Source: Escherichia coli 042
GTDB lineage: Bacteria > Pseudomonadota > Gammaproteobacteria > Enterobacterales > Enterobacteriaceae
Strand: one strand, 5' to 3'
DNA: 64,000 nucleotides
NCBI RefSeq assembly: GCF_000027125.1
Contig: NC_017626.1
Shown: piece after piece, positions 10,147 to 34,850 of the stretch
How the letters are laid out: every line of letters starts with the position of its first letter
How positions within the stretch are numbered: position 1 is the first letter of the stretch
Program-made: the position numbers and the translations under genes
Notes under the pieces: model-generated
Databases searched by the model: none
What the model saw: only the letters and a program-made list of their open reading frames with translations
What the model was told of the DNA's origin: nothing

Positions 10147-12534
10147 TTATCCAATACGTGCTCGTGCGCGTTCCTGTTCACGGATCTGCGCCTGAATTTG
10201 TGTATAAAGCTGCGCCTGTTCATTATCGCGATCGGTCGCGGTCACGACCAGTGCGTAAGGCTCCTGCTCGCTGCTGAATGCTTCGCCCCAGTCTCTGTCC
10301 TGACGGGTAACAACAATAAACCATTTTTCATCCGGGTTACGCTGGCGAAAAGTCCAAATCGACGACTGTACCGTCCCGCGTTCCCGCTGTTGGGCTGATA
10401 CAACACGGTTAGTCTGGGCATCATCGGAGCGGGTTTCCGTCTCACTCTGCGTCTGGTGATTAAAACTGGCCTGCACTTCATCCAGCGAGCGGCCCTTAAC
10501 CAGCCGGAAACCGATCCGTGTGGCAGTATAATCCAGCCGGGTGGTACGCACGGCGGGTGAATATGCCAGCGTAACGCGGACTTCACGGGTTGCACGCTGC
10601 GATCGTAAAAAAGAAGCCGGGAAGGGCAGTTCAAAAAATTGGTGCGCGTTATTTTCTATCTGCTCTTCACATCGCATGACCACCACATTTTCAGAAGAAC
10701 GATATAACGCATCTTCATCAATGATGCCGTAGCCTGTCACGTCGCGCTCAATCTCCCGGTTTCTCGTTGCAGGCGCATTTCTATAGCTTTCTCTCATGGC
10801 CTGCGGAAAAGCCTGCGTCATCTCCTGAGAAACAGAAGCATGATTGACCAGCATTGCCCGCAGCATATTGGCAGACATTTCCGGGTATTCATTTAGCAGT
10901 CGACCCGCCAGATGTGTGATATACGGCGCGGCAAAGCTGGTGCCGCTGAGTTCTTTAAACAGCGTATTACCCTGAAACTGGTGATGGCAGCTTAATACGC
11001 CCAGACCGCGCATATGTGCCTGCCATTGCCCTTGCCGAACGTTGGAAGCGACATTGCCACCGTGCGCTACAACGTCAGGTTTAAACGCGCCTTTTACCGA
11101 CGGGCCGTGTCGGGTAAAAGGCGACGGTTGGTTTTCCGTTGCCGGGCTGAGATGCTGAATATCGCCAGGCCTACGCTGCGCATCCAACGTTGCGTTATGT
11201 CTGGCGACGCTGCCCACTGTCAGTACGTTCAGCGCCGGAGCCGGATCGATGATTACGCTGTCCTCATGCAACAGGTAGTCAGGATATTCATCCCGCCAGC
11301 TATTTTGCGGCACCGGAGGATCGTCGCTGCCTGCGAAATTCCCCGCAGAGACGACAAACAGTACATTATATTGCCGCGCCAGCGTATCTAACAGATACGC
11401 CATACCGCGAATATGTTTGCCGTCATAGGGCGCATTAGCATTCCCCAGCGACAGATTGAAAATGCGGCAACCGAGATCGGTAAAATACGCGACGGCGGCT
11501 GTTAGTGTGCTTTCAATCGTTTCGGCATTGAATTCAGCCCGCTCGTTCAGTACTTTCCCGTTATACAGCCATAGCTGCGGCTGCCAGAAATTGCTCTGGT
11601 TACAGGCTTCAACGTCGCCATACAGAGCAATACTCGCTACGGCGGTGCCATGCCCCTCTTGATCAAACGCATCCTGATTGGGAATAAAGCTGGCGCTTTC
11701 AGCAATGGCGGCACTTAACAGAGGGTGATTGGTGTTGATGCCGCTATCCAGAATACAGACTCTGGCCGCATTTACCGCAGGCGAAATCAGATGCTCTGGA
11801 AGTGTATTGATGTCCCGGTTAATTTGTTGATAGCTAATGCCGCTGGACGGTGGCAAATCAACCAACCTGACGTCCCGATGCGCTAACAGGTATTCTGCTT
11901 GCGCGAGCGAAACCTCTATCCGGTACATCAACAGGCTGTCCAGATTGACTTTATCCCGCCAGAGAATCCCCTGCTCTCTGAGCCAATTTTCAAAACGGGT
12001 ATACAGGTCGATACGTCTGGGGTGATGCGCCACATCGACTGGCCAGAGCTCCACATCCAGATTAAAGCGTTCCGCTACAGGAAAACCATAGCGCCGGAGT
12101 GCCCAGCTTTTACGATCTTCCGCCGACCAGCCGTCAATGCCGTCAAGCGCTTCGAGAATATTCCTGTAGGTTAGGTCCGTACGGGGAAGCCCCAGTTGCG
12201 CCAGATGGGTTTCGAAGGTTGTCAGACCCTGCTCATTAGTGAAAACGATACAGACCTGTTTACCTTCCTGACTGATGAACTCCACGCCGTGATGTATCAA
12301 TGCTGAAAAATTCATTGTGCCGCTGTAGTTCAGCTTGAGGATATAGCGCCCGTCATCGGCGCTGCCGGGTACTTGTGCCAGCGTTGGGCGCAAGGTATGG
12401 AGTTGCGTCAACAGCATTTGCCCGTGCTGGCGTAAATCGCCCCTGCGAATACGGGGCATATTGACTCTGCGGGTCCGTCGGTCGTTTTGAAGTGGTGCTT
12501 TGGTAATCGTTAGATGCTGATAATTCGCCGTCAT
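10147..12534 (-). CDS. Subtilisin-like S8 serine peptidase with ~250-aa N-terminal extension (IetS-like)
   Basis: 795 aa; catalytic D (VCILDSGIN), H (HGTAVASIA), S (GTSFAAPYITH); starts 9 nt after the ATPase stop. Confidence 0.8.
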   Translation of the reverse strand: MTANYQHLTITKAPLQNDRRTRRVNMPRIRRGDLRQHGQMLLTQLHTLRPTLAQVPGSADDGRYILKLNYSGTMNFSALIHHGVEFISQEGKQVCIVFTNEQGLTTFETHLAQLGLPRTDLTYRNILEALDGIDGWSAEDRKSWALRRYGFPVAERFNLDVELWPVDVAHHPRRIDLYTRFENWLREQGILWRDKVNLDSLLMYRIEVSLAQAEYLLAHRDVRLVDLPPSSGISYQQINRDINTLPEHLISPAVNAARVCILDSGINTNHPLLSAAIAESASFIPNQDAFDQEGHGTAVASIALYGDVEACNQSNFWQPQLWLYNGKVLNERAEFNAETIESTLTAAVAYFTDLGCRIFNLSLGNANAPYDGKHIRGMAYLLDTLARQYNVLFVVSAGNFAGSDDPPVPQNSWRDEYPDYLLHEDSVIIDPAPALNVLTVGSVARHNATLDAQRRPGDIQHLSPATENQPSPFTRHGPSVKGAFKPDVVAHGGNVASNVRQGQWQAHMRGLGVLSCHHQFQGNTLFKELSGTSFAAPYITHLAGRLLNEYPEMSANMLRAMLVNHASVSQEMTQAFPQAMRESYRNAPATRNREIERDVTGYGIIDEDALYRSSENVVVMRCEEQIENNAHQFFELPFPASFLRSQRATREVRVTLAYSPAVRTTRLDYTATRIGFRLVKGRSLDEVQASFNHQTQSETETRSDDAQTNRVVSAQQRERGTVQSSIWTFRQRNPDEKWFIVVTRQDRDWGEAFSSEQEPYALVVTATDRDNEQAQLYTQIQAQIREQERARARIG

Positions 12535-12543
12535 GGCAGTCCC

Positions 12544-13524
12544 TTATCGGTGGGTTCTGGCGTTTTCTCGCTGAGTTGCGTTTTTTAAATCTTTTAGCGT
12601 CAGGAATTCCTGATGACGCAGGATCATATGCTTGGTTGCCCGACGGACAATGCGCTCAATATCTGCACCGCTTTTCCCGAGCAGCAGGGATAATAGCTCG
12701 CTATCGTCCAGCTCAAACTGACGGCGGGTGCCGCGTAATTTTAACGCCAACAGCTCACGTAACTGCGCCTGATCCGGCAACGGAAATTCAATCACTTCAT
12801 CAAATCGACGCCAGATGGCGCTGTCCAGAATGTGTTCATGGTTAGTGGCCGCCAGAATCAGGCTTTTACCCTGATAAGCATCCATCATTTGTAAAACGGC
12901 ATTGACGACCCGGCGTAATTCACCGTGTTCGCCGCTGTCGCCACGCTCTTTTCCTATGGCATCAAACTCATCGAACAACACCACCATTGGGTGCTCTGCA
13001 ATAAAATCGAAAATTTTACGCAGATTGGCGGCGGTTTCTCCCAAAAACGAAGACACCAGTACGTCGAGGCGGACAATTGCCAGCGGCATGTCCAGTTCAA
13101 AAGCGATAACCTCTGCTGTCAGCGTTTTACCGCAGCCCGGCGGTCCGAAAAACATGATCTTACTGGCTGCTTTCATCCCGTAGCTATGCAATACATCGCT
13201 ACGCCGGTGCTCTTCAAGGAGTTCATCAATCACTGTAGCGCTGGTCGCCGGGAGGATCATTTCATCAAGGCTGCGCTGTGGCTGCCGGAGATCCAGCAAC
13301 GGCAGGCCCCTTTCTTTATCTATCGGTGCTTGAGGAAGCGCAGGCGAGCGCGAAGCCTGAACAAGACGATCGCCGTAAAGAATATGCTCCAGATCGTTAG
13401 CCAGAAGGTGGTGCTGTTTCTGACGTTCCTCATCAATAATGGCTTCCGAAACACGACGGAAAGTAGCGGTATCACCCGTTGCGCCCGCTTTTATTAGTTG
13501 CCTTAATATCTTACCGTTAGCCAT
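12544..13524 (-). CDS. AAA+ ATPase (IetA-like)
   Basis: Walker A GPPGCGKT, Walker B VVLFDEFD, sensor region LILAATN; ATG at 13524 has an AGGAG RBS (ORF track uses an upstream GTG at 13548). Confidence 0.8.
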   Translation of the reverse strand: MANGKILRQLIKAGATGDTATFRRVSEAIIDEERQKQHHLLANDLEHILYGDRLVQASRSPALPQAPIDKERGLPLLDLRQPQRSLDEMILPATSATVIDELLEEHRRSDVLHSYGMKAASKIMFFGPPGCGKTLTAEVIAFELDMPLAIVRLDVLVSSFLGETAANLRKIFDFIAEHPMVVLFDEFDAIGKERGDSGEHGELRRVVNAVLQMMDAYQGKSLILAATNHEHILDSAIWRRFDEVIEFPLPDQAQLRELLALKLRGTRRQFELDDSELLSLLLGKSGADIERIVRRATKHMILRHQEFLTLKDLKNATQRENARTHR

Positions 13525-13549
13525 TATTGACTCCTGAAACCACAGCACT

Positions 13550-16416
13550 TCATGCGGAAGGTGAACTCAACGTCCAGCTCACCGCGAATAATTGACGGGA
13601 CGTTATTTCCGTCGCCAGCTTTTGCTCGACCTCTTCCAGCAGACGGTCCTCTTCCTGCTCGATTTTTTTCTTTTCATCATGATACTGCAACATGATGCTA
13701 TCCCGCTCGCGTTCCAGCACCTTTAATGCGCGCTTGGCTTCCATTTTCTCTTTTAGAGAAGGAAGCTGACGGGCGGCTTTACGCGCCTCTTTAATTTCTG
13801 CATCTAACTGTTTGATACGTAAGTCCAGCGCGATACGTCGATCTTCTGACCAGCGTTCAAGTTTTTCTACTTCTTCATTGTAATAAAGTTCGTTATCGCG
13901 TTCGACCTGTTGGATAAAAGAATGCCGTAAAACCTCACATTGTGTTGTTAACGCAGGCAGCAAAGGCTGTTCTTCGACAGATGTTATCTCTGATAATGGC
14001 AGGCGAAGCAGACGGGATACGGTTTCCTCTGCCAGCACTTCGCCATTTTCTGTAACAGCGACGGTCAATAGTTTCTCTCGCTGTTGCTCCTGATTTCCGA
14101 TGCTGACTTTTGCCAGCAACAGCTGTCCCGATTTCCCGCAGAACAGTTTAACATCGGCCAGTTGTCCGCTTCTGGGTTGGTAGATGAAATGGAGCTTCTG
14201 GCAAACTGGGGATGTGGAAAGGCTTGCCCCTTCATGCAGGGCAGCATCAATCAGTTGCTTCCCATATCCCTGGCTGGGCCGGAAGAATTCGGCATCTTTT
14301 TCATCCGCAATGGGCCAGTTGACGTCAAAATACTTTCCTCTGGAACGAAAACCCGTCTCAGAACGTTGAAAATCGCTCTCGTCGCTCAGAAACATTTCCG
14401 CCAGCAGCAACAGATTTTCCTGGTAATCGTTTAACTGCGCGAGGGTGGTTGTACGTCGGGTTTTCAGATTGCGGACCACATCAACGTCAAAATGCTCGAA
14501 TAATGAACGCCGGGTTTCATTCTCCCGATTTTCCAGTTGATCTTTGAGTTCATCCTGCAGCTGATTAAATTCCTGTTCAATTTGTTCATCGGAGCGGCAG
14601 TGCTGGTATATCTCATGAATACGTCGTTCAATATCAACACCTGATTCGATCGACCCCAGAATGTCATCGGATGCGCCAAACACCCCTTCAAAAAGCTGGA
14701 ACTTCTGGCTCAATAATTCAAACACGCGCTGATCGGCACGGTTGCCTTTATTAATAAAATTAACCACCACGACATCGTGTTTTTGTCCATAGCGGTGAAC
14801 ACGCCCGATACGTTGCTCCACGCGCTGCGGATTCCACGGTAAATCATAATTGATTAACAGCGAACAAAACTGGAGGTTGATACCTTCTGCGCCCGCTTCA
14901 GTACAAATCATCAGGGTGCCTTCGTCCCTGAATTTTTCAACCAGCGCTGCCTTCATATCCGCCGTACTCGAACCGGAAACCCGGCCAGAGTTCTGATGTT
15001 TCTCCAGCCAGTCGCTGTAAATCTTCTTCGACACCGCATCGCTATTGCTGCCATTGAGCAGAACCACTTCTCCCTCGTAGCCACTTTCTGACAACAGTTG
15101 CGCCAGCCAGGTCTGGGTGCGTACGGACTCGGTAAAAATGACCGCCTTACGTAATCCGCCCAGTTCAGCCGTAAAGGTAAAGGCCCGATCGAGAACGCGT
15201 AACAGTGCTTCGGCCTTGGCGTTTTTGGTAATCGATGCCGCTAAAGTCTTATAATTTTTTAACTGGTCAATTTCGGCCTGTAGCGCCTGAGGATCGATGG
15301 TATCTTCGTCATCAATGCCTTCTTCATCGCTGTAATCGTCGTAATTTTCATAATCCGTCAGCGCATCCAGCACCGGCATTTTACTTTCAAGACGGTGGAT
15401 CATCGTTTCCAGCGTTCCCTGGATCGCTGTAGACGATGAGGCCAGAATTTTACGAATGACTAACGTTACTAGGTGACGCGCGCCGCTTTTGATCGCCAGT
15501 AGATCGTCCCGCTGCAAATAAGAGGAAACCTGTTTATAGAGCACTTCTTCGTCTTCCGTCGGACGAAAGTCTTCGGTTATTGAATGGCGTCGGGTAAAAC
15601 TGATCCCGCCTTCCTGCTGAACCTGTCGACGAAGCGTTCGATTACAGATTTTATTCAGACGAACCCTTAATAATGCCAGTTCTGCATCGTCAATATTCTG
15701 TCGGGAATAACGGGCCTTGAACGAAGCAAGGTCGCCGAAAAAATGAGGATCAATCACGGAAATCAGGCCGTAAAGCTCAAGAATACTGTTTTGTAGCGGC
15801 GTGGCGGAAAGCAGTATTTTTTTTCTGCCGGACAGTGCGCCACTGAGTTTTTTGGCTGTTTTAGCGCCATCGTTCTTGTAGATATTACGCAGTTTATGCG
15901 CCTCATCCATGACGACCAGATCCCACGGGATTCGTGCCAGCTCGTGCTCTTTACGGGCAGCGAATTCGTATGAACAAATGCAGATCGCCGCTTTCCCGGT
16001 TGCATTTTCAATATCAAAGGGATTATCGCTCCCCTCTTTAACCATTTGATTGAAGATCTTCGCTTCAATAATTTGTGAAGGCAGCGAAAATTTCTCTTCC
16101 AGCTCCTGGCTCCACTGCTTGCGTAGCGTTGCGGGTGCAATCAGCAACAGTTTTCGGCGGCGTTCAGCCCATTTTGCGCCAAAATCAGGCTGGCCTCAAT
16201 AGTTTTCCCCAGTCCCACTTCATCGGCCAGGATCACGCCATTCGACAGGGGAGATGCCAGCGCAAACATCGCAGCCTCTACCTGATGAGGATTCATATCA
16301 ACCCGTGCGCTGGCAATAGTTTGCGTCAGCGAGTCCTCGGCTTTGCCGCTTAACGTCAACCAGTGGGCCAGATAACTACGTTGGTGATCTGAATACATTT
16401 TCATACCTTTGTGCAA
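13550..16416 (-). pseudogene. SNF2-family helicase with ~450-aa coiled-coil-rich C-terminal extension, frameshifted near the N-terminus in this sequence
   Basis: Motif I ILADEVGLGKTIEA in the 16141..16416 piece; motif II VMDEAHKLRN and LLSATPLQN in the 13550..16147 piece. One extra nucleotide in the A4 or T4 run at plus 16172-16184 restores a continuous ~955-aa frame (...LILAQKWAERRRKLLLIAPATLRKQW...). Confidence 0.75.
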
Positions 16417-16698
16417 AGAGGGGGAGGGGAGCGCGACCGTATTTTACTGATATATGAACCGGGTTGCTAATCTGGAAGATGGCTCGCATTACATCCCCTT
16501 GTCGTTCACCGGGCTTCGCGGTCTCTTTTCCTCGCGTCTGCAAAATCAGGCGCCGGGCTTGACCTCCTGAACACTCCTTAGTGACGACACAATGGCGCGC
16601 TCGCGCCTTTTTTGTGCCGGTGCTCGGCTACACCTCAATGGCGGACCGGGCGGGGGCGTCGCAAGGCGCGCTGGATGGACTGTTCTGAGGAGGCAGGA

Positions 16699-17402
16699 AT
16701 GAGACGATTACCGCTGATGGTGGGCGTGATAGTGGGCGTAATGCTGGCTGTCGGCTGCCATGACCGTAGGGCTGGTGTGAGGACGCTGCTGGGCGATGGC
16801 GTGGAGCAATGGGGGCAGAAGTTGCCTTACGACCACTGGGAATTCAATTTTTTTACCCGAAAAATCTGCCGGCACTGGTGACAATGGTGTATCTGGAGGA
16901 CGGGGATATCCGGGAGAGCTTTTTCCGGCGACTGGATCCGACTGAACCCAGTCAGAGCAGTGTGGGAAAATGGAGCCAGCACGTAGGCGGTTTTTTAGCC
17001 AGTTTTAATATTGGCAAGGCGCTGCCTGTCAGGATGACGGTATGCTGGGACTCAGTTATCGATAAAAAGGCGTATGAGACGGAGATCTGGTTCAGCCGGG
17101 ATACGTGGCAGCAGATGCTGACTGCCTATCCTGATACTTATCGTCCGGGAAAAATATATTACCGAAACAAAATGATTATTGGCCTGCCCCCCGGTGGTAA
17201 AGTCAGGGTATGGTTAAAAGACAATCGTAATCCTGTTGTACTCCAGAATCCTGCCCGACAGTTCACCCTGACGGGAGATGATATGCTGATATGCAAAAAT
17301 GTTCCCAACAAGATTGATTTCAGTTACATCAAGGCTAACGGTTACGATCCATTTATCCGCGATTTTATCAAGGAAAAGCCCTATCCGTATGGTCACTGGT
17401 AG
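16699..17402 (+). pseudogene. Putative lipoprotein, frameshifted at a T7 homopolymer
   Basis: N-terminus MRRLPLMVGVIVGVMLAVGC (lipobox LAVGC); the two overlapping ORF-track frames (16612..16881, 16809..17402) join if the T7 run at 16848-16854 is T8 (...HWEFNFFYPKNLPALV...). Confidence 0.5.
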
Positions 17403-17429
17403 GGCGCAACGATCAGCAAAATTAAAATG

Positions 17430-17800
17430 ATCTTCTTGAGATCCTTTTAAGCTGCGCGTAATCTTCGGCTTGTAAACGGAAAAAGCCGCCTTGCGGCGGC
17501 TTTTTCCGTCCGATTAGAAGTCTTCGACCTCTTCTAATCGACTGTGGTAACTGGCTTGATGGAGCACAGATACCAAATGCTGTCCTTCCAGTGTAGCCGC
17601 TATAAGGCTTCAACTTCAAGAGTTCTGCGTATCTAAATCCACTATCCAGTTACCAATGGCTGCTGCCAGTGGCGTTAAGTCGTGTCTTACCGGGTTGGAC
17701 TCAAGACGATAGTTACCGGATAAGGCGCAGCGGTCGGGCTGAACGGGGGGGCGTGCACACAGCCCAGCCTAGAGGACTCGACTTATTTAATTGTGTAAAC
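17430..17800 (+). other. ColE1/pMB1-type plasmid replication-control region (RNAII 5' region / RNAI), truncated remnant
   Basis: Near-identity to the pBR322/pUC ori region as I recall it, e.g. GTCGTGTCTTACCGGGTTGGACTCAAGACGATAGTTACCGGATAAGGCGCAGCGGTCGGGCTGAACGGGGGG and CAGATACCAAAT..GTCCTTC..AGTGTAGCC; homology stops near 17795, before where the origin proper would lie. Confidence 0.7.
17476..17583 (-). ncRNA. RNAI-like antisense RNA of the ColE1-type remnant
   Basis: Minus strand from ACAGCATTTGGTATCTG... through a strong hairpin AAAAGCCGCC-GCAA-GGCGGCTTTT, matching the position and orientation of RNAI in ColE1 replicons; expression not assessable. Confidence 0.4.
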
Positions 17801-17867
17801 AGGGCCTCTCCGCGAAAGACCCTTATGCATCACCTGACGTTAAAAGTCACTACACCCAAGATGACGT

Positions 17868-18131
17868 TCAATGGCACCATGTGATTTCAATGTAAGCCCG
17901 GGCCGTCTGTTCCAGTACACCAGGCTCAGCGTTGTATGTGTTAGCTGCATCAAATACCAACGTCAGCACTTCAGGATACACAACCAGATATGTAATGGAG
18001 TTATCTTCATCCAATACTTTTCCCCACGCCTGCTCAATCAGATTTCTGAGAACCACCACCTCACGACTCTTACACCAGACATCGTTATTAAGTAGCAGCA
18101 CCATAAGATAAGGAGTGGTATCGTTAGCCAC
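17868..18131 (-). CDS. Hypothetical protein (unrecognised), between ColE1 remnant and IS1
   Basis: 87-aa ORF with protein-like composition; no recognisable motif. Confidence 0.2.
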   Translation of the reverse strand: MANDTTPYLMVLLLNNDVWCKSREVVVLRNLIEQAWGKVLDEDNSITYLVVYPEVLTLVFDAANTYNAEPGVLEQTARAYIEITWCH

Positions 18132-18271
18132 AGCCTCCCTGCTCCAGAGATAATATAAAGGGGGGGCTCAACAGATTGATCTTTACGTCGCTTACACTGC
18201 AAATATTCAGAAATGAGTCTATGCATTTCACCAGTAAAATCAGCCATCAGAGAGGGGGTAATGACTCCAAC

Positions 18272-18649
18272 TTATTGATAGTGTTTTATGTTCAGATAAT
18301 GCCCGATGACTTTGTCATGCAGCTCCACCGATTTTGAGAACGACAGCGACTTCCGTCCCAGCCGTGCCAGGTGCTGCCTCAGATTCAGGTTATGCCGCTC
18401 AATTCGCTGCGTATATCGCTTGCTGATTACGTGCAGCTTTCCCTTCAGGCGGGATTCATACAGCGGCCAGTCATCCGTCATCCATATCACCACGTCAAAG
18501 GGTGACAGCAGGCTCATAAGACGCCCCAGCGTCGCCATAGTGCGTTCACCGAATACGTGCGCAACAACCGTCTTCCGGAGCCTGTCATACGCGTAAAACA
18601 GCCAGCGCTGGCGCGATTTAGCCCCGACATAGCCCCACTGTTCGTCCAT
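18272..18649 (-). CDS. insB: IS1 InsB
   Basis: [48 protein letters not shown]... Confidence 0.9.
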
Positions 18650-18693
18650 TTCCGCGCAGACGATGACGTCACTGCCCGGCTGTATGCGCGAGG

Positions 18694-18969
18694 TTACCGA
18701 CTGCGGCCTGAGTTTTTTAAGTGACGTAAAATCGTGTTGAGGCCAACGCCCATAATGCGGGCAGTTGCCCGGCAGCCAACGCCATTCATGGCCATATCAA
18801 TGATTTTCTGGTGCGTACCGGGTTGAGAAGCGGTGTAAGTGAACTGCAGTTGCCATGTTTTACGGCAGTGAGAGCAGAGATAGCGCTGATGTCCGGCGGT
18901 GCTTTTGCCGTTACGCACCACCCCGTCAGTAGCTGAACAGGAGGGACAGCTGATAGAAACAGAAGCCAC
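18694..18969 (-). CDS. insA: IS1 InsA
   Basis: [43 protein letters not shown]... Confidence 0.9.
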
Positions 18970-19354
18970 TGGAGCACCTCAAAAACACCATCATACACTA
19001 AATCAGTAAGTTGGCAGCATCACCTGTTCCCAAAATTTTATTTATCTTCATCACTTACAGAGAATGCTCAACATTTGCTAGTCTTTTCCTGTCCTGGTAT
19101 CCAAAGTCTCCTCCCAAATATCCTGGATACTAGCTTAGACAAAATGAGATTATATTTATGGTAAATTATATCATAACAGCTTTTGTTAAGGATGCTGTGT
19201 AAGATAAAATATATGGGTTAGAGGCAGATTCTTTTGCAATCAGGAAGAAGATAATCACTGATGTTATCGGATATGTAGCAGTATTCGTTATAGCTATTTA
19301 GAGAAATTTGTGCCACAATTTATTATAGAGTTTAAAGAAAAATATATTGAAAAT

Positions 19355-19381: not shown

Positions 19382-20644
19382 TTATTTTAATGGGTTATTA
19401 ATCTTTGCATATTCAAATGGACTGATAAATTTTTCTCTGTTTGCATCCAGAAAATCGGCCCACCACTGTAGCATCAGTCGCCGTTCTTCCAGATGTTCTG
19501 CTTTATGAATGTAAGCAGCACGTACACCGTTACGTTCCTGATGGCTCATCTGACGTTCCACAGCATCGCGGGACCACAAACCTGATTCAATCAATGCACT
19601 GCACGCCATCGCCCGGAATCCATGGCCACAGACTTCCTGGGTTGTGTCATACCCCATCACCCTCAGGGCTTTATTTACAGTATTTTCACTGATTGGTTTA
19701 CGCGGGTCATGTGCACCCGTAAATATCAGACCATTTTCACCTGCCCATGTCTGAAGTTCTGTCAGTATGGCTACAGCCTGTTTACTGAGTGGCACAAGAT
19801 GTGGTGTCCGCATCTTGGAGCCCCGGTGTGAGAATTTTACGCCAGGCAGAGGTTCGCGTTCGGCTGGAATAGTCCACATGGCATTGTCAATATCAATTTC
19901 AGACCAGCGGGCATATCTGAGTTCACTGGAACGAATAAAAACCAGTAAATTCAGCATAACGGCAAGCCGGGTGACAGGCTGGCCTTTATAACCGTCAATA
20001 CGCGACAGAAGTTCAGGCAGGCGTGAAAGATTCAGAGCGGGGCGATGCTGGCGTTTTACCGTGGTCAATGCACCAGCCATATCCAGAGCCGGGTTATATC
20101 TGATGATGCCAGACTGTACGGCGTAACGCATTACAGCAGATATTCTTTGCTGCAGACGACTGGCGATTTCATAAATTTGTTTTGCTTCTGCAGCACGAAC
20201 AGGGATAAGCAGGTCCGGGGTATTGAGTGTTGTGATATCCCGGTTGCCGATAAAGGGGAAAACGTGTGTCTCGAGGCTTTTGAGTACTTTATCGCTGTGT
20301 GATTGTGCCCATTGTTTATTACTGGCATGCCAGCGTCGTGCAATATGTTCAAAAGAGAGCTGTAAATCAGGGACTACTTTTTTAACTCTTTTCTGTTCGC
20401 AAGGGTCAATCCCCTCTGAAATCAGTTTTCGGGCCTCATCCCGTTTTGTACGAGCTTCGGAGAGAGAAACTTCTGGATACACACCAAGTGCCAGAGTCTT
20501 CTCCTTACCCAGAATACGATAACGGAGACGCCAGTAACGGGAACCATTAGGATGTACCAGCAGGAACATGCCAGCCCCGTCAGTGAGTTTATAAGCCTTG
20601 TCAGTAGGCTTTGCTGCCCGGATTTTTGCGTCAGTCAGTGCCAT
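19382..20644 (-). CDS. int: P4-family tyrosine integrase
   Basis: 420 aa, MALTDAKIRAAKPTDKAYKLTDGAGMFLLVHPNGSRYWRLRYR...; C-terminal catalytic region HGFRAMA...RAAYIH; located ~200 bp from the 3' end of tRNA-Phe. Confidence 0.9.
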   Translation of the reverse strand: MALTDAKIRAAKPTDKAYKLTDGAGMFLLVHPNGSRYWRLRYRILGKEKTLALGVYPEVSLSEARTKRDEARKLISEGIDPCEQKRVKKVVPDLQLSFEHIARRWHASNKQWAQSHSDKVLKSLETHVFPFIGNRDITTLNTPDLLIPVRAAEAKQIYEIASRLQQRISAVMRYAVQSGIIRYNPALDMAGALTTVKRQHRPALNLSRLPELLSRIDGYKGQPVTRLAVMLNLLVFIRSSELRYARWSEIDIDNAMWTIPAEREPLPGVKFSHRGSKMRTPHLVPLSKQAVAILTELQTWAGENGLIFTGAHDPRKPISENTVNKALRVMGYDTTQEVCGHGFRAMACSALIESGLWSRDAVERQMSHQERNGVRAAYIHKAEHLEERRLMLQWWADFLDANREKFISPFEYAKINNPLK

Positions 20645-20841
20645 AGTTCAGCCTTCTGAATGCGTTAAAGAGGGTACAAATTCTGTCGAACTGGGGTATG
20701 CCCACAATTATACCCACACAATGAGGTTGATGTGGGGGGAATCTGGTTGAGTTCGGTAGAATTGATTTGGAGGCAGGACGCTTAAATCGTGGCGTCCTGG
20801 AATGAAAAACGGACCTCCGTGGAGGTCCGTTGATATGAATT

Positions 20842-20917
20842 TGGTGCCCGGACTCGGAATCGAACCAAGGACACGGGGATTTTCAATCCCCTGCTCTACC
20901 GACTGAGCTATCCGGGC
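20842..20917 (-). tRNA. pheU: tRNA-Phe (GAA)
   Basis: Exact 76-nt tRNA-Phe as reverse complement (GCCCGGATAGCTCAGTCGGTAGAGCAGGGGATTGAAAATCCCCGTGTCCTTGGTTCGATTCCGAGTCCGGGCACCA); followed by yjdC-dsbD-cutA as at K-12 pheU. Confidence 0.95.
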
Positions 20918-21023
20918 AACGGGGCGCATTAAACCGTAATCTGCACATCTCGTCAACCTAATTTCAGTAAAAGCGATTCAACTGCTTAAGATTGCGGCAA
21001 ATCGCTTCTTTTCTGTGTTTCTG

Positions 21024-21623
21024 TCAGGTCAGTGCGCCACCCTGGCGGCAGCGAGCGAAGCGCAGGATATCTTCTGCCAGCCGATGTGCGGTGTCGACAT
21101 CCGCCTGGCTACGATTCACCAGCATTCGGCTTAAACAGCCTTCCAGCACCAGTTCCATCTGCTTTGCTACCATCGCCGGATCGTCAACTTCCAGCGTGGT
21201 TAACAGTTCGTGGGTGAAATCGTAGGCCGCGCTTTTTTGCTGATCGGCCAGTTGATGAATAGGGTGGCCAGGATCGGGATAAAACGTACAGGCAGCGATA
21301 AACAGACAGCCCGGATAGCGGTTGTTTTTAACGCACTCCGATAACGCCTGATAACGTGCCAGCAGCTTTTGTTCGGCGGTTTGCGTTTCGTCCAGCATCA
21401 GCTGACGACGCCAGACATCTATCTGTTGGCTAAGATAACGCAGCGCATCGTAGAGGATTGCCTCTTTGTCTGGCCAGAAACGGCGCAGCTCGTCCAGTGG
21501 ATAATCCACACGTTCAGCAACCATCTCCAGCGTGGTGTTGGCAATCCCTTGTAATTCTAATAATTTCAGGGCTTCTCCCAGTACATCTTCACGTTGCACG
21601 CTATTTTCCTCCGTCTTTCCCAC
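21024..21623 (-). CDS. yjdC: TetR-family transcriptional regulator YjdC
   Basis: ORF-track protein recognised as YjdC; the true start may be the internal GTG at 21599. Confidence 0.8.
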
Positions 21624-21635
21624 TGCAAGTGTCGT

Positions 21636-23333
21636 TCACGGTTGGCGATCGCGCAAATGTGCGCTGAAGGTTTCAGCATCCATAAAGCCCGTGACGCGTG
21701 CTTGTGGATGCTCCTGGCCTTGTCCGTCAAAAAAGAGAATTGTCGGTAGGCCAAGGACATTAAGATGCTTTAACAGCGCCACATCTTGTGCGTCGTTGGC
21801 AGTGACGTTGGCCTGAAGTAATACCGTGTCTGCTAACGCTTTTTGCACCTGCGGGTCGCTGAAGGTGTATTTCTCAAACTCTTTACAGGCGACGCACCAG
21901 TCGGCATAGAGATCTAACATCACCGGTTTGCCTTTGGCTTCAACGAGCGCCTGATTTAACTCATCTACCGTTTTGATTTGTGTAAAGTTGAGATGCGTCT
22001 GAGTTTGCGCGGTATGCGTCGCACCAAATGCCCAATCCTGAAGTGGGCGCACGCTAACTAATGCCGCTGCCAGCAGGATTATTTGCACCACGCGCATCCA
22101 GCCGCGTTTGGCCTGTAGGCTGGTGATAAAGGCCCAGCCAAAGAATGCGACACCAAGCGCCGACCACAAGCGTAATCCCCATATATCACCAATCACTCGC
22201 TCCAGCAGGAAGACCGGCAGTGCGAGGATCACAAAACCAAACGCGGTTTTGACTTGTTCCATCCACGGGCCGCTTTTCGGCAGCAGGCGGTTACCAAAGA
22301 CGGTTATTAGCATCAGCGGCAGGCCCATGCCCAACGCATAGAGATAAAGCGTGCCGCCCCCCAGCAACATGTTCCCGCTTTGGGCGATATACAGCAGAAT
22401 CGCGCTAAGCGGTGCGGTGGTGCATGGTGAACAGATCAGTCCGGCAATCGCCCCCATAACAAACACACCGCCAGGTGAGCCGCCCTGTTGGCGATTGCTC
22501 ATCAGCGTGAGACGTGTTTGCAGCGAAGAGGGGAGTTGCAGAGTAAACAAGCCAAACATTGACATCGCCAGCAAGGTAAAGACGATAGCGAGGCCAATGA
22601 GCACGTATGGGTGCTGTAGCGCCGCCTGGAACTGTAACCCTGCGGCGGCAACCACCAGACCCAGTGCCGTGTAAGTCAGCGCCATCCCCTGCACATAAAT
22701 AAAGGTCAGCAACAATGCTCTGGCAGTGGAGAGCCGCTGTTTACCGCCCAGCACGATACCAGAAATCAGTGGGTACATTGGCAGCACGCATGGCGTAAAG
22801 GCGATACCAATACCGATCAACAACGCCCAGAGCGCGGAAAAGGGCAATTGCGCGGTGGGCTGCTCTTGCTGCGGAACAGACACAGGCTGTGGCGCTGAGT
22901 TGTTGACGACCACTTCGCTTAACGGAACGGTTTTGGTTTCTGGCGGATAACAGAAACCGGCATCAGCACAGCCCTGGTAGGTGACAGTTAACGTCGCTCC
23001 CGCACTCGCCTTGTTGATGGTTACGGGAAGCGTCAGCCGATCGCGGTAAATCTCGCTTTTGCCGTAAAACTCATCTTCATGCCAGACGCCTTGCGGCAGC
23101 TGTACGTCGGCAATTTTCGCGTGTTCCGGCGTAATGCGGATCTGTTTACGGTAGAGGTAATAACCGTCTTTGATCTGCCAGGTCAGATTCAGGTCATGTT
23201 GGTTTTGCTGAAAATCAAAAGCAAAGGCTTGATCCGCGGGGACAAATTGTGAACGTCCCGGCGCGTCGAATAATCCGGCAAAAACGGAAGTGCTGCAAAG
23301 TAGCAGGATCAGCGTAAAGATGCGTTGAGCCAT
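21636..23333 (-). CDS. dsbD: Thiol:disulfide interchange protein DsbD
   Basis: Start trimmed to [19 protein letters not shown] giving 565 aa; C-terminal thioredoxin-like CVAC motif. Confidence 0.9.
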
Positions 23334-34676: not shown

Positions 34677-34850
34677 GCAATAACGGTACGACAGTTATGT
34701 CGTGCCGTTTGTTTTTTTGCGATAGTCACAAAGGTAATAGTTGAAATTCCCCTGCCACCTGGCAAAATATCCGTTCAACCATCAGCTTTGCAGGACGACC
34801 TGCAAACGCCTCTTTTCACCGGGGACGGCCCCAATTCTCCGGAGCCTGAT

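Follow-up and report, generated by a model that had tools for sequence, protein, structure and literature searches.

A block of plasmid DNA, 1,107 bp long, lies at positions 16668–17774 of the window, the 64,000-nucleotide stretch of the Escherichia coli 042 chromosome (NC_017626.1) analysed here, and is embedded in a tRNA-Phe genomic island. With a probability of roughly 0.88, we consider it to be what is left of a small ColE1-family plasmid of the tle1/tli1 type, unable to replicate, decaying and carried as neutral baggage. The fragment is real but is an ordinary molecular fossil, and the core of the first-pass annotation of this DNA, which saw a captured and truncated plasmid with a distinct RNAI, is right. 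The limits of the captured piece and the part given to the neighbouring IS1 have both changed.

The plasmid-derived block and its cargo

The first-pass annotation began the captured piece at about 17430, beside a lipoprotein gene. The ColE1 fragment it recognised is genuine, but the plasmid DNA starts at 16668, and both the adjoining lipoprotein gene and 21 bp of tle1 belong to it:

16668–17774, plus strand: plasmid-derived block, 1,107 bp
16668–16688, plus strand: 3'-terminal 21 bp, stop codon TGA included, of a tle1-like (DUF2235) gene for a T6SS phospholipase effector, at the left breakpoint
16699–17402, plus strand: DUF2931/Tli1-type lipoprotein immunity gene, a pseudogene with T7 instead of T8 at 16848–16854

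Against three plasmids, blastn and alignment set the limits exactly at 16668 and 17774, with unbroken homology between them and identities of 95.8% (pEA5_2), 91.3% (pSTEC17_183-a) and 89.1% (pS19_141-f) in blastn. The BLASTN search of plasmid databases proposed with the first-pass annotation has in this way supplied both the closest relatives and the exact breakpoints. As plasmid homology is unbroken across 16668–17774, the ‘lipoprotein’ gene must itself be plasmid cargo.

The plasmid homologue of the tle1-like gene falls in Pfam PF09994 (T6SS_Tle1-like) and bears the RefSeq name Tle1-like T6SS phospholipase effector. The plasmid orthologue of the tli1-type gene falls in PF11153 (E 4.1e-33), and the window copy is 89–96% identical at the DNA level. 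NCBIfam gave no match for the DUF2931, DUF2235 or yagK-remnant proteins, although Pfam did match DUF2931 and DUF2235. Proteins with a DUF2931 domain confer immunity to Tle1 effectors (PMC7245790). In the window the T7 run cuts the signal peptide and lipobox off the DUF2931 domain, leaving open reading frames at 16699–16881 and 16809/16884–17402 where RefSeq annotates two, and the adjacent cognate tle1 is absent from the window apart from its last 21 bp. On pS19_141-f, on pEA5_2 and in IncF-integrated copies, a tle1–tli1 pair directly precedes the ori, with the order and orientation seen in the window, and in all of the best plasmid matches the gene next upstream of the ori is a DUF2931 gene. 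Judged by this homology, the DNA came from a family of small ColE1 plasmids with a T6SS tle1–tli1 effector/immunity pair.

The RNAI/RNAII control region

The right-hand part of the block holds both transcription units of a ColE1-type control region, one of them cut short:

17436–17464, plus strand: RNAII (primer) promoter, with -35 TTGAGA at 17436–17441, a 17-nt spacer and -10 TAATCT at 17459–17464
17472–17774, plus strand: RNAII primer precursor, 5' ~303 nt, truncated, placed by alignment with ColE1 and with pS19_141-f, whose replicon is complete
17476–17583, minus strand: RNAI antisense gene, complete, 108 nt, with a 5' tail, three stem-loops and a terminator hairpin with U-run
17590–17619, minus strand: RNAI promoter, with -10 TACACT at 17595–17590, an 18-nt spacer and -35 TTGAAG at 17619–17614

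Homology of the region at about 17430–17800 to the RNAII-5'/RNAI part of ColE1, as first proposed, is borne out. Window positions 17425–17774 are 77.4% identical to ColE1 (NC_001371) in blastn (E ~1e-70), and more than 5,000 ColE1-type plasmids align to the control region. An Rfam scan of the whole window places RNAI (RF00106) at 17476–17581 on the minus strand at 59.9 bits, where the gathering score is 47 (E 1.9e-8). The match to the covariance model is full-length (model positions 1–102 of 102, not truncated), and by this measure the window RNAI is a genuine member of the family. A 72-mer quoted in the first-pass annotation occurs once in the window, at 17679–17750, and agrees with ColE1 at 70 of 72 positions and with both pS19_141-f and pSTEC17_183-a at all 72. 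The homology was said to end near 17795, which is too far to the right; it stops at 17774.

Neither RNAII promoter hexamer differs from ColE1 in the alignment, and both would function as they do there; the same alignment puts the RNAII +1 at about 17472. The promoter (17436–17464) is thus followed by the RNAII 5' domain complementary to RNAI (within 17472–17774), and the conserved G-run of the stub is at 17745–17751. The RNAI promoter lies inside RNAII on the opposite strand, and its predicted activity follows from hexamers and spacing that equal those of ColE1 in the alignment. As promoter hexamers and spacing equal those of ColE1, transcription of RNAI and of the RNAII stub probably continues. 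A generic sigma-70 consensus scan of 17350–17900 called no promoter; ColE1's own bona fide promoters also score below the scan threshold, and this null result is therefore not taken as promoter absence.

Folding of the RNAI strand gives three stem-loops behind an unpaired 5' tail at -54 kcal/mol, against a mean of -25.6 for shuffled sequences (z = -8.8), with the minimum free energy and centroid structures in agreement. The RNAI-equivalent stem-loops reported at first are therefore present, and a terminator-like site lies within the RNAI gene at 17497–17485 on the minus strand; promoter and terminator are laid out exactly as in ColE1. Stem-loop I of the window allele reads GGTAACTGGCTTGATGGAGCACAGATACCAAATGCTGTCC. 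Across seven alleles compared, 13 of the 32 RNAI pairs are preserved via double-sided changes. Compensatory changes thus exist as claimed, but they are located in the stems and not in the loops, which merely differ. The identity of only 77% to ColE1, the natural tle1/tli1 plasmids as nearest relatives and the covariation in the stems together sustain the earlier view that this is a distinct RNAI variant rather than vector sequence. RefSeq calls a 48-aa open reading frame inside the fragment a ‘replication initiation protein’.

Loss of the origin

In ColE1 priming, RNAII (about 550 nt at full length) reaches the origin, a persistent hybrid forms, RNase H cuts it and DNA polymerase I is primed. 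The rom/rop gene is accessory, not essential, for a ColE1-type replicon. When ColE1 and pS19_141-f were compared with the window by blastn, neither the final ~250 nt of RNAII nor the RNase H site/origin nor rom was found anywhere in the entire 64 kb, in agreement with the original remark that the origin proper and rom are gone, and whole-plasmid blastn confined plasmid homology to 16668–17774. Since the RNAII stub ends about 250 nt before the origin, it can give no primer and the fragment is incapable of serving as an origin. The captured fragment is not a functional ColE1 replicon. The block homology and the missing 3' part of RNAII likewise support the capture of a small ColE1-type plasmid whose replicon is truncated.

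Junctions and the island setting

To the right of the block, native island DNA precedes the IS1:

17774/17775: right plasmid/island junction, CAGCCTAGAG joined to GACTCGACTTATTT, with 1 nt (G) of microhomology
17775–18256, minus strand: native island backbone, 482 bp, being the 3' flank and 3' part of yagK/yfjJ (‘inovirus Gp2’-type)
18257–19024, minus strand: IS1, 768 bp, inside yagK/yfjJ and lacking a target-site duplication

The right junction is fixed by alignment with two insert-free islands and two plasmids. In strain CE0007a the plasmid sequence is unmutated at this junction (CAGCTTGGAG joined to GACTCGAC), and relative to CE0007a and the plasmids the window has four point changes beside it. 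Because CE0007a keeps plasmid sequence to the same point, the odd bases near the window junction are later mutations. With 1 nt shared between the partners, the joining is an illegitimate recombination. The backbone at 17775–18256 has counterparts in 1,444 E. coli genomes, nearly always on the chromosome. An 87-aa open reading frame at 17868–18131 is a yagK/yfjJ remnant, and YagK/YfjJ is annotated in CB6886, CUVET16-465 and CFSAN004176.

The left flank (16399–16667, 270 bp) contains an isrK/C4-like RNA (Rfam, 56.8 bits) and an apparent truncated start of an ash-family gene. A phage search of this flank returned a single weak match, to an Ash-family gene. The neighbouring defence cluster comprises a type III RM system, IetAS and a DrmD-like SNF2 protein. 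The island occupies the pheU site, with a dsbD/dicD flank matching UPEC69 at 100%, a guanidine-II riboswitch at +14 kb and three tRNA-Gly genes at +29 kb. A location at pheV, considered by analogy with O104:H4, is ruled out by divergence directly after the tRNA and by the pheU flank markers.

A second lineage of carriers, lineage A, was inspected in two strains, CFSAN004176 and CE0007a; A24 and CE0026a are placed in it because their partial match to RNAI is the same. Both inspected strains share with the window the left flank, the SNF2-to-yagK arrangement and the right junction, and in CFSAN004176 yagK/yfjJ is full-length, with neither an IS1 nor an IS1 scar. These strains bear on the proposal that IS1-mediated cointegration brought the plasmid in and that later deletions removed most of it. 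An IS1 only 482 bp away that lacks a target duplication must have taken part in some rearrangement, which speaks for such a history. However, those 482 bp are native backbone, neither junction sequence carries an IS1 end, and lineage A has the same two junctions with full-length yagK/yfjJ and no IS1 or scar, and we judge this route very improbable. The first-pass annotation had placed the IS1 next to the ColE1 fragment and had the plasmid possibly captured via it; the intervening backbone contradicts the former, and the IS1-free junctions of lineage A overturn the latter. As lineage A has identical plasmid junctions without IS1, the IS1 arrived after the capture. UMNK88, which has no IS1, was initially taken as proof of this late arrival and was dropped for that purpose, since it bears an excision scar: in UMNK88 and in one metagenome contig (L013) the site reads CATCA/CC/TGTTCCC, with the native GAGAGGG gone and the terminal CC kept. 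This scar arose through a CATCA repeat.

Our preferred reading of the block as a neutral plasmid remnant would need a single event. One illegitimate recombination would have placed 1.1 kb of plasmid between two island sequences, with the isrK/C4-like RNA and truncated ash-like gene start beside the defence-gene cluster as left partner and the 3' flank of the backbone gene yagK/yfjJ as right partner. The island would then have spread with the fossil to the pheV and pheU attachment sites.

Distribution and decay

The block is covered to at least 80% in 57 of 5,426 complete E. coli genomes, the query being 16640–17800, that is the block plus about 27 bp of each flank, with the junction sequences themselves examined in a few of the 57. 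The majority of the matches listed are 100% identical to the window, and the O104:H4 copy is identical base by base. Carriers include the O104:H4 outbreak strains, EAEC 55989, ETEC E24377A, TW10722 and NCTC9082. A further six metagenome contigs have the exact RNAI allele, all in the same chromosomal arrangement. The block is at pheV in O104:H4, 55989, E24377A and UMNK88, and at pheU in the window, UPEC69, TW10722 and others. Its occurrence at both tRNA-Phe sites places the capture before the spread of the island module to them.

ColE1/pMB1 origins are the commonest vector contaminant, and the 72-mer is matched at 72 of 72 positions in many plasmids, which could point to an assembly chimera or to contamination by a cloning vector. 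The chance of this is close to nil. The block and its ~27-bp flanks are covered in 57 independently closed genomes, produced on several platforms over decades, as well as in the six metagenome contigs, the RNAI region, at an identity to ColE1 of only about 77%, comes with natural-plasmid cargo, and the block has lineage-specific secondary mutations. The same arrangement in so many closed genomes and in the metagenome contigs excludes both an assembly artefact and vector contamination, and settles the concern over chimeric assembly that accompanied the first-pass annotation.

Different carriers have lost different parts. In lineage B, to which the window belongs, tli1 has the T7 frameshift, and this is the same in O104:H4, 55989, E24377A and 300709. 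In lineage A tli1 is intact (T8, 705 bp), and a 31-bp deletion corresponding to window positions 17466–17496, between CGGCTT direct repeats, takes out the RNAII +1 together with one half of the stem of the RNAI terminator. The block of UMNK88 is cut on the left at 16895, with loss of the 5' third of tli1, and that of TW10573 is cut on the right at 17275, with loss of all ColE1 sequence and with the remaining tli1 in frame (T8). That lineages A and B each lost a different component indicates neutral decay. The RNAI gene and both promoters are 100% conserved in 47 chromosomes, an invariance that could reflect selection. Since conservation is just as complete in the pseudogene and throughout the 1.1 kb, we ascribe the invariance to recent common ancestry.

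Selection might instead have acted on the cargo, with an orphan tli1-type immunity gene protecting its host against Tle1 from plasmid-bearing neighbours and the ColE1 region merely hitch-hiking. Orphan immunity genes are a known phenomenon, and the function assigned to DUF2931 proteins fits the idea. The left breakpoint, 21 bp inside tle1, kept the whole immunity gene with its ribosome-binding region and lost the toxin gene, and tli1 remains whole in lineage A and, in TW10573, keeps its frame up to the 3' cut. Against this, tli1 is frameshifted in the window and in most carriers, O104:H4, 55989, E24377A and 300709 among them, and UMNK88 has a tli1 without its 5' third. We hold such a selected role for tli1 to be unlikely.

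The RNAI allele and its possible activity in trans

The exact window RNAI allele occurs on none of the 72,556 plasmids in PLSDB. A metagenome scan also found it on no plasmid, all six matches being chromosomal. The best PLSDB match (98.2%) is pSTEC17_183-a, an origin-less copy within an IncF plasmid that has a different loop I. Relative to the window RNAI, free plasmids of the pS19_141-f type have four substitutions, which are confined to the 5' tail and stem-loop I, and stem-loops II and III, loops included, are identical in the window, pS19_141-f and NZ_CP117578. In E24377A the fossil is accompanied by the ColE1-type plasmids pETEC_5 and pETEC_6. Their RNAI has entirely different stem-loops II and III, and since this strain hosts both plasmids a general effect of the fossil on ColE1-type plasmids is excluded. 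Chromosomal copies and plasmids with a close RNAI were never found in one genome, a comparison without power given that only about 0.06 overlaps are expected (~53 and 6 carriers among 5,426 genomes).

The RNAI and RNAII stub transcripts would mainly pair with one another, and in trans RNAI would act only on a plasmid with RNAII loops that match the window allele. Cloned RNAI genes reportedly exert incompatibility in trans, and single loop changes are said to be able to alter its specificity. Trans-interference by the window RNAI is possible, although it would be narrow in range, and a partial cross-reaction with pS19_141-f-type plasmids is conceivable from the shared loops.

A stronger proposal is that the chromosomal RNAI is a working anti-plasmid determinant that is expressed constitutively and blocks, or lowers the copy number of, ColE1 plasmids of the tle1/tli1 family, so that its host would be shielded from a plasmid that is costly or gives weapons to competitors. 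The intact RNAI with its terminator and ColE1-identical promoter hexamers and spacing, the match of stem-loops II and III to the free plasmids pS19_141-f and NZ_CP117578, and the reported incompatibility in trans are all compatible with this, as is the lack of any genome that combines the chromosomal copy with a closely related plasmid RNAI, were that test not powerless. The neighbouring defence island is suggestive of an anti-plasmid role and proves nothing. However, the window RNAI differs from every free plasmid in its 5' tail and loop I base, and a single loop change can shift specificity. Half of the RNAI terminator is deleted in lineage A and RNAI is wholly lost in TW10573, a single chromosomal copy yields far less RNAI than a multicopy plasmid, and E24377A keeps its two other ColE1-type plasmids alongside the fossil. 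On this balance we regard a working anti-plasmid role as quite improbable.

A related proposal, which we consider about as improbable, is that the single chromosomal RNAI gene at the edge of the defence island gives a heritable ‘incompatibility immunity’ against its own tle1/tli1 plasmid lineage, or that the fragment is a recombination or landing site for resident ColE1 plasmids. Were it true, incompatibility immunity would also explain the absence of a free same-allele plasmid in carriers. Patches of ColE1-like sequence in CE0007a hint at use of the 130–350 bp of near-perfect homology for recombination or landing.

Comparison with known systems

The fragment shares with the ColE1/pMB1 control region the hexamers and spacing of both promoters, the RNAI tail with three stem-loops and the RNAII core (70/72). 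In contrast to those replicons, the window has only RNAII nt 1 to ~303, in a single chromosomal copy with no origin or rom, and unlike in ColE1 its stem-loops II and III are of wholly other sequence, with compensatory changes in the stems.

The order tle1–tli1–RNAII promoter/RNAI is common to the window, pS19_141-f (NZ_CP075646) and the Escherichia albertii plasmid pEA5_2 (NZ_CP117577), at 89–96% identity over the 1,107 bp. Those plasmids differ in that their replicon is complete, origin and rop included, and their tli1 is intact, and further in the RNAI 5' tail and stem-loop I, and in the RNAII region corresponding to 17595–17650, which is of another type. The closest allele, 98% identical over the ori part, is that of the IncF plasmid pSTEC17_183-a (NZ_CP075653), where a ColE1 replicon has likewise been absorbed and has lost its origin. 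There the host is a plasmid, whereas in the window it is the chromosome (tRNA-Phe island), and the truncations are independent, that in the window falling about 70 nt earlier.

Plasmid-origin fragments reportedly occur in the tRNA-associated pathogenicity islands of uropathogenic E. coli 536, such islands being described as mosaics of mobile-element debris. The 536 islands are reportedly alike in containing replication debris of small plasmids and differ in the islands and fragments concerned. ColE1 replicons inside larger plasmids are frequent, and ori truncation after integration has been described, for example in pE66An (Ares-Arroyo et al. 2021, PMC8683028). The co-integrates described there are mostly transposon-mediated; in contrast, no transposase is present at the window junction. 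A literature search that included a 2024 study of pheV islands (PMC11537424) turned up no specific account of this fragment or of a chromosomal RNAI.

Implications

Replicon-typing tools can report a ColRNAI replicon on chromosomal DNA of this kind, and plasmid detection from short reads of O104:H4, 55989 or ETEC strains could report a ColE1 plasmid that does not exist. Should exclusion of a cognate plasmid be shown, the fossil would represent a very simple, RNA-only anti-plasmid mechanism. The block documents small ColE1 plasmids as carriers of T6SS effector/immunity cargo, and its RNAI allele, unseen on sequenced plasmids, offers a glimpse of a plasmid lineage that is either unsampled or extinct. 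The shared junction is a clean synapomorphy with which the island module can be traced across pheV, pheU and pathotypes. It also illustrates how tRNA-Phe islands acquire plasmid debris through illegitimate recombination.

Plasmid relatives of the fossil

The plasmid relatives of the fossil include a family of 5-7 kb ColE1-type plasmids that carry a tle1-like T6SS phospholipase together with a DUF2931 immunity gene and whose hosts are E. coli, E. albertii and E. marmotae. The tle1-like/DUF2931 module is also found integrated in IncF plasmids of ~110-130 kb from human STEC isolates. Small multicopy plasmids carrying T6SS effectors seem to be little discussed in the literature, given that the word 'T6SS' is absent from a 2021 survey of ColE1 plasmids (PMC8683028).

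In the sister-lineage fossil of CE0007a (locus L021, 2430-2860, equivalent to window 17400-17830), patches of sequence agree with ColE1 and not with the plasmids of the tle1/tli1 family:

L021 2430-2860: ColE1-matching patches TTTTTTTCTG (RNAII promoter spacer), CCAGTGG and AAGGCGTGCC

Such patches are suggestive of gene conversion, with a resident plasmid of the ColE1 type as partner of the chromosomal copy.

Edges and island neighbourhood

A small RNA match lies to the left of the fossil:

16521-16667, + strand: interval containing a match to the isrK RNA family (RF01394; 56.8 bits, gathering score 50) with a terminator

A match to the C4 antisense target c4-a1b1 overlaps this RNA with a sub-threshold score, and sequence 3' of the RNA is 73% similar to the start of a Hafnia phage Ash-family gene; in the window this gene is cut off exactly at the plasmid junction 16667/16668. 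The interval resembles a C4/IsrK immunity module of phage or satellite type that lost its end when the plasmid piece was captured. To the right of the fossil (window 18245-19033), the IS1 within the backbone gene yagK/yfjJ lacks a target-site duplication, and the sequence on its right does not continue yagK/yfjJ as known from other islands, which together suggest an IS1-associated deletion. Near-precise excision of IS1 via a 5-bp CATCA repeat is seen in UMNK88 (locus L009, 5764-5790) and in one metagenome contig (L013), with the terminal CC of IS1 remaining in both.

The neighbouring cargo (5637-16398, - strand) is a defence island according to PADLOC models run on the O104:H4 copies:

5637-8507, - strand: type III restriction enzyme
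8510-10136, - strand: type III Mod methyltransferase
10147-12534, - strand: IetS
12544-13548, - strand: IetA
13550-16398, - strand: DrmD/BrxH-like SNF2 helicase

Relative to O104:H4, single-base deletions in the window break the reading frames of mod (at 9415) and of the SNF2 gene (at 16171); they reflect true loss of the genes' function or else sequencing errors in homopolymers. Downstream of pic, window 1138-3272 (2.1 kb) stands in place of a 2.7-kb O104:H4 segment comprising an IS3-fragment and a group II intron (ltrA), and contains an ORF:

1745-2821, - strand: 358-aa ORF

In the window the island module is located at pheU (19382-22600), flanked by dicD/yjdC-dsbD, and is 100% identical to UPEC69. 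It is shared with O104:H4, 55989, E24377A and UMNK88, where it occupies pheV. Downstream of tRNA-Phe, the sequences at pheU and pheV diverge within ~30 bp, and their differences cluster at 20936-20959. On the pheU side, the neighbourhood also has features that belong to the ordinary core genome and serve here only to identify the locus:

34787-34833, + strand: guanidine-II (mini-ykkC) riboswitch
50071-50490, + strand: three tandem tRNA-Gly(GCC) genes

Annotation of the RNAII core

RefSeq/PGAP places a protein-coding gene inside the conserved RNAII core of the fossil:

17616-17762, - strand: 48-aa ORF, 'replication initiation protein' (WP_072172747.1)

The equivalent RNAII-core ORF of ColE1 itself receives the same RefSeq/PGAP label. 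Since ColE1 replication does not require a plasmid-encoded initiator, the label looks like a propagated misannotation, through which the chromosome seems to encode a Rep protein.
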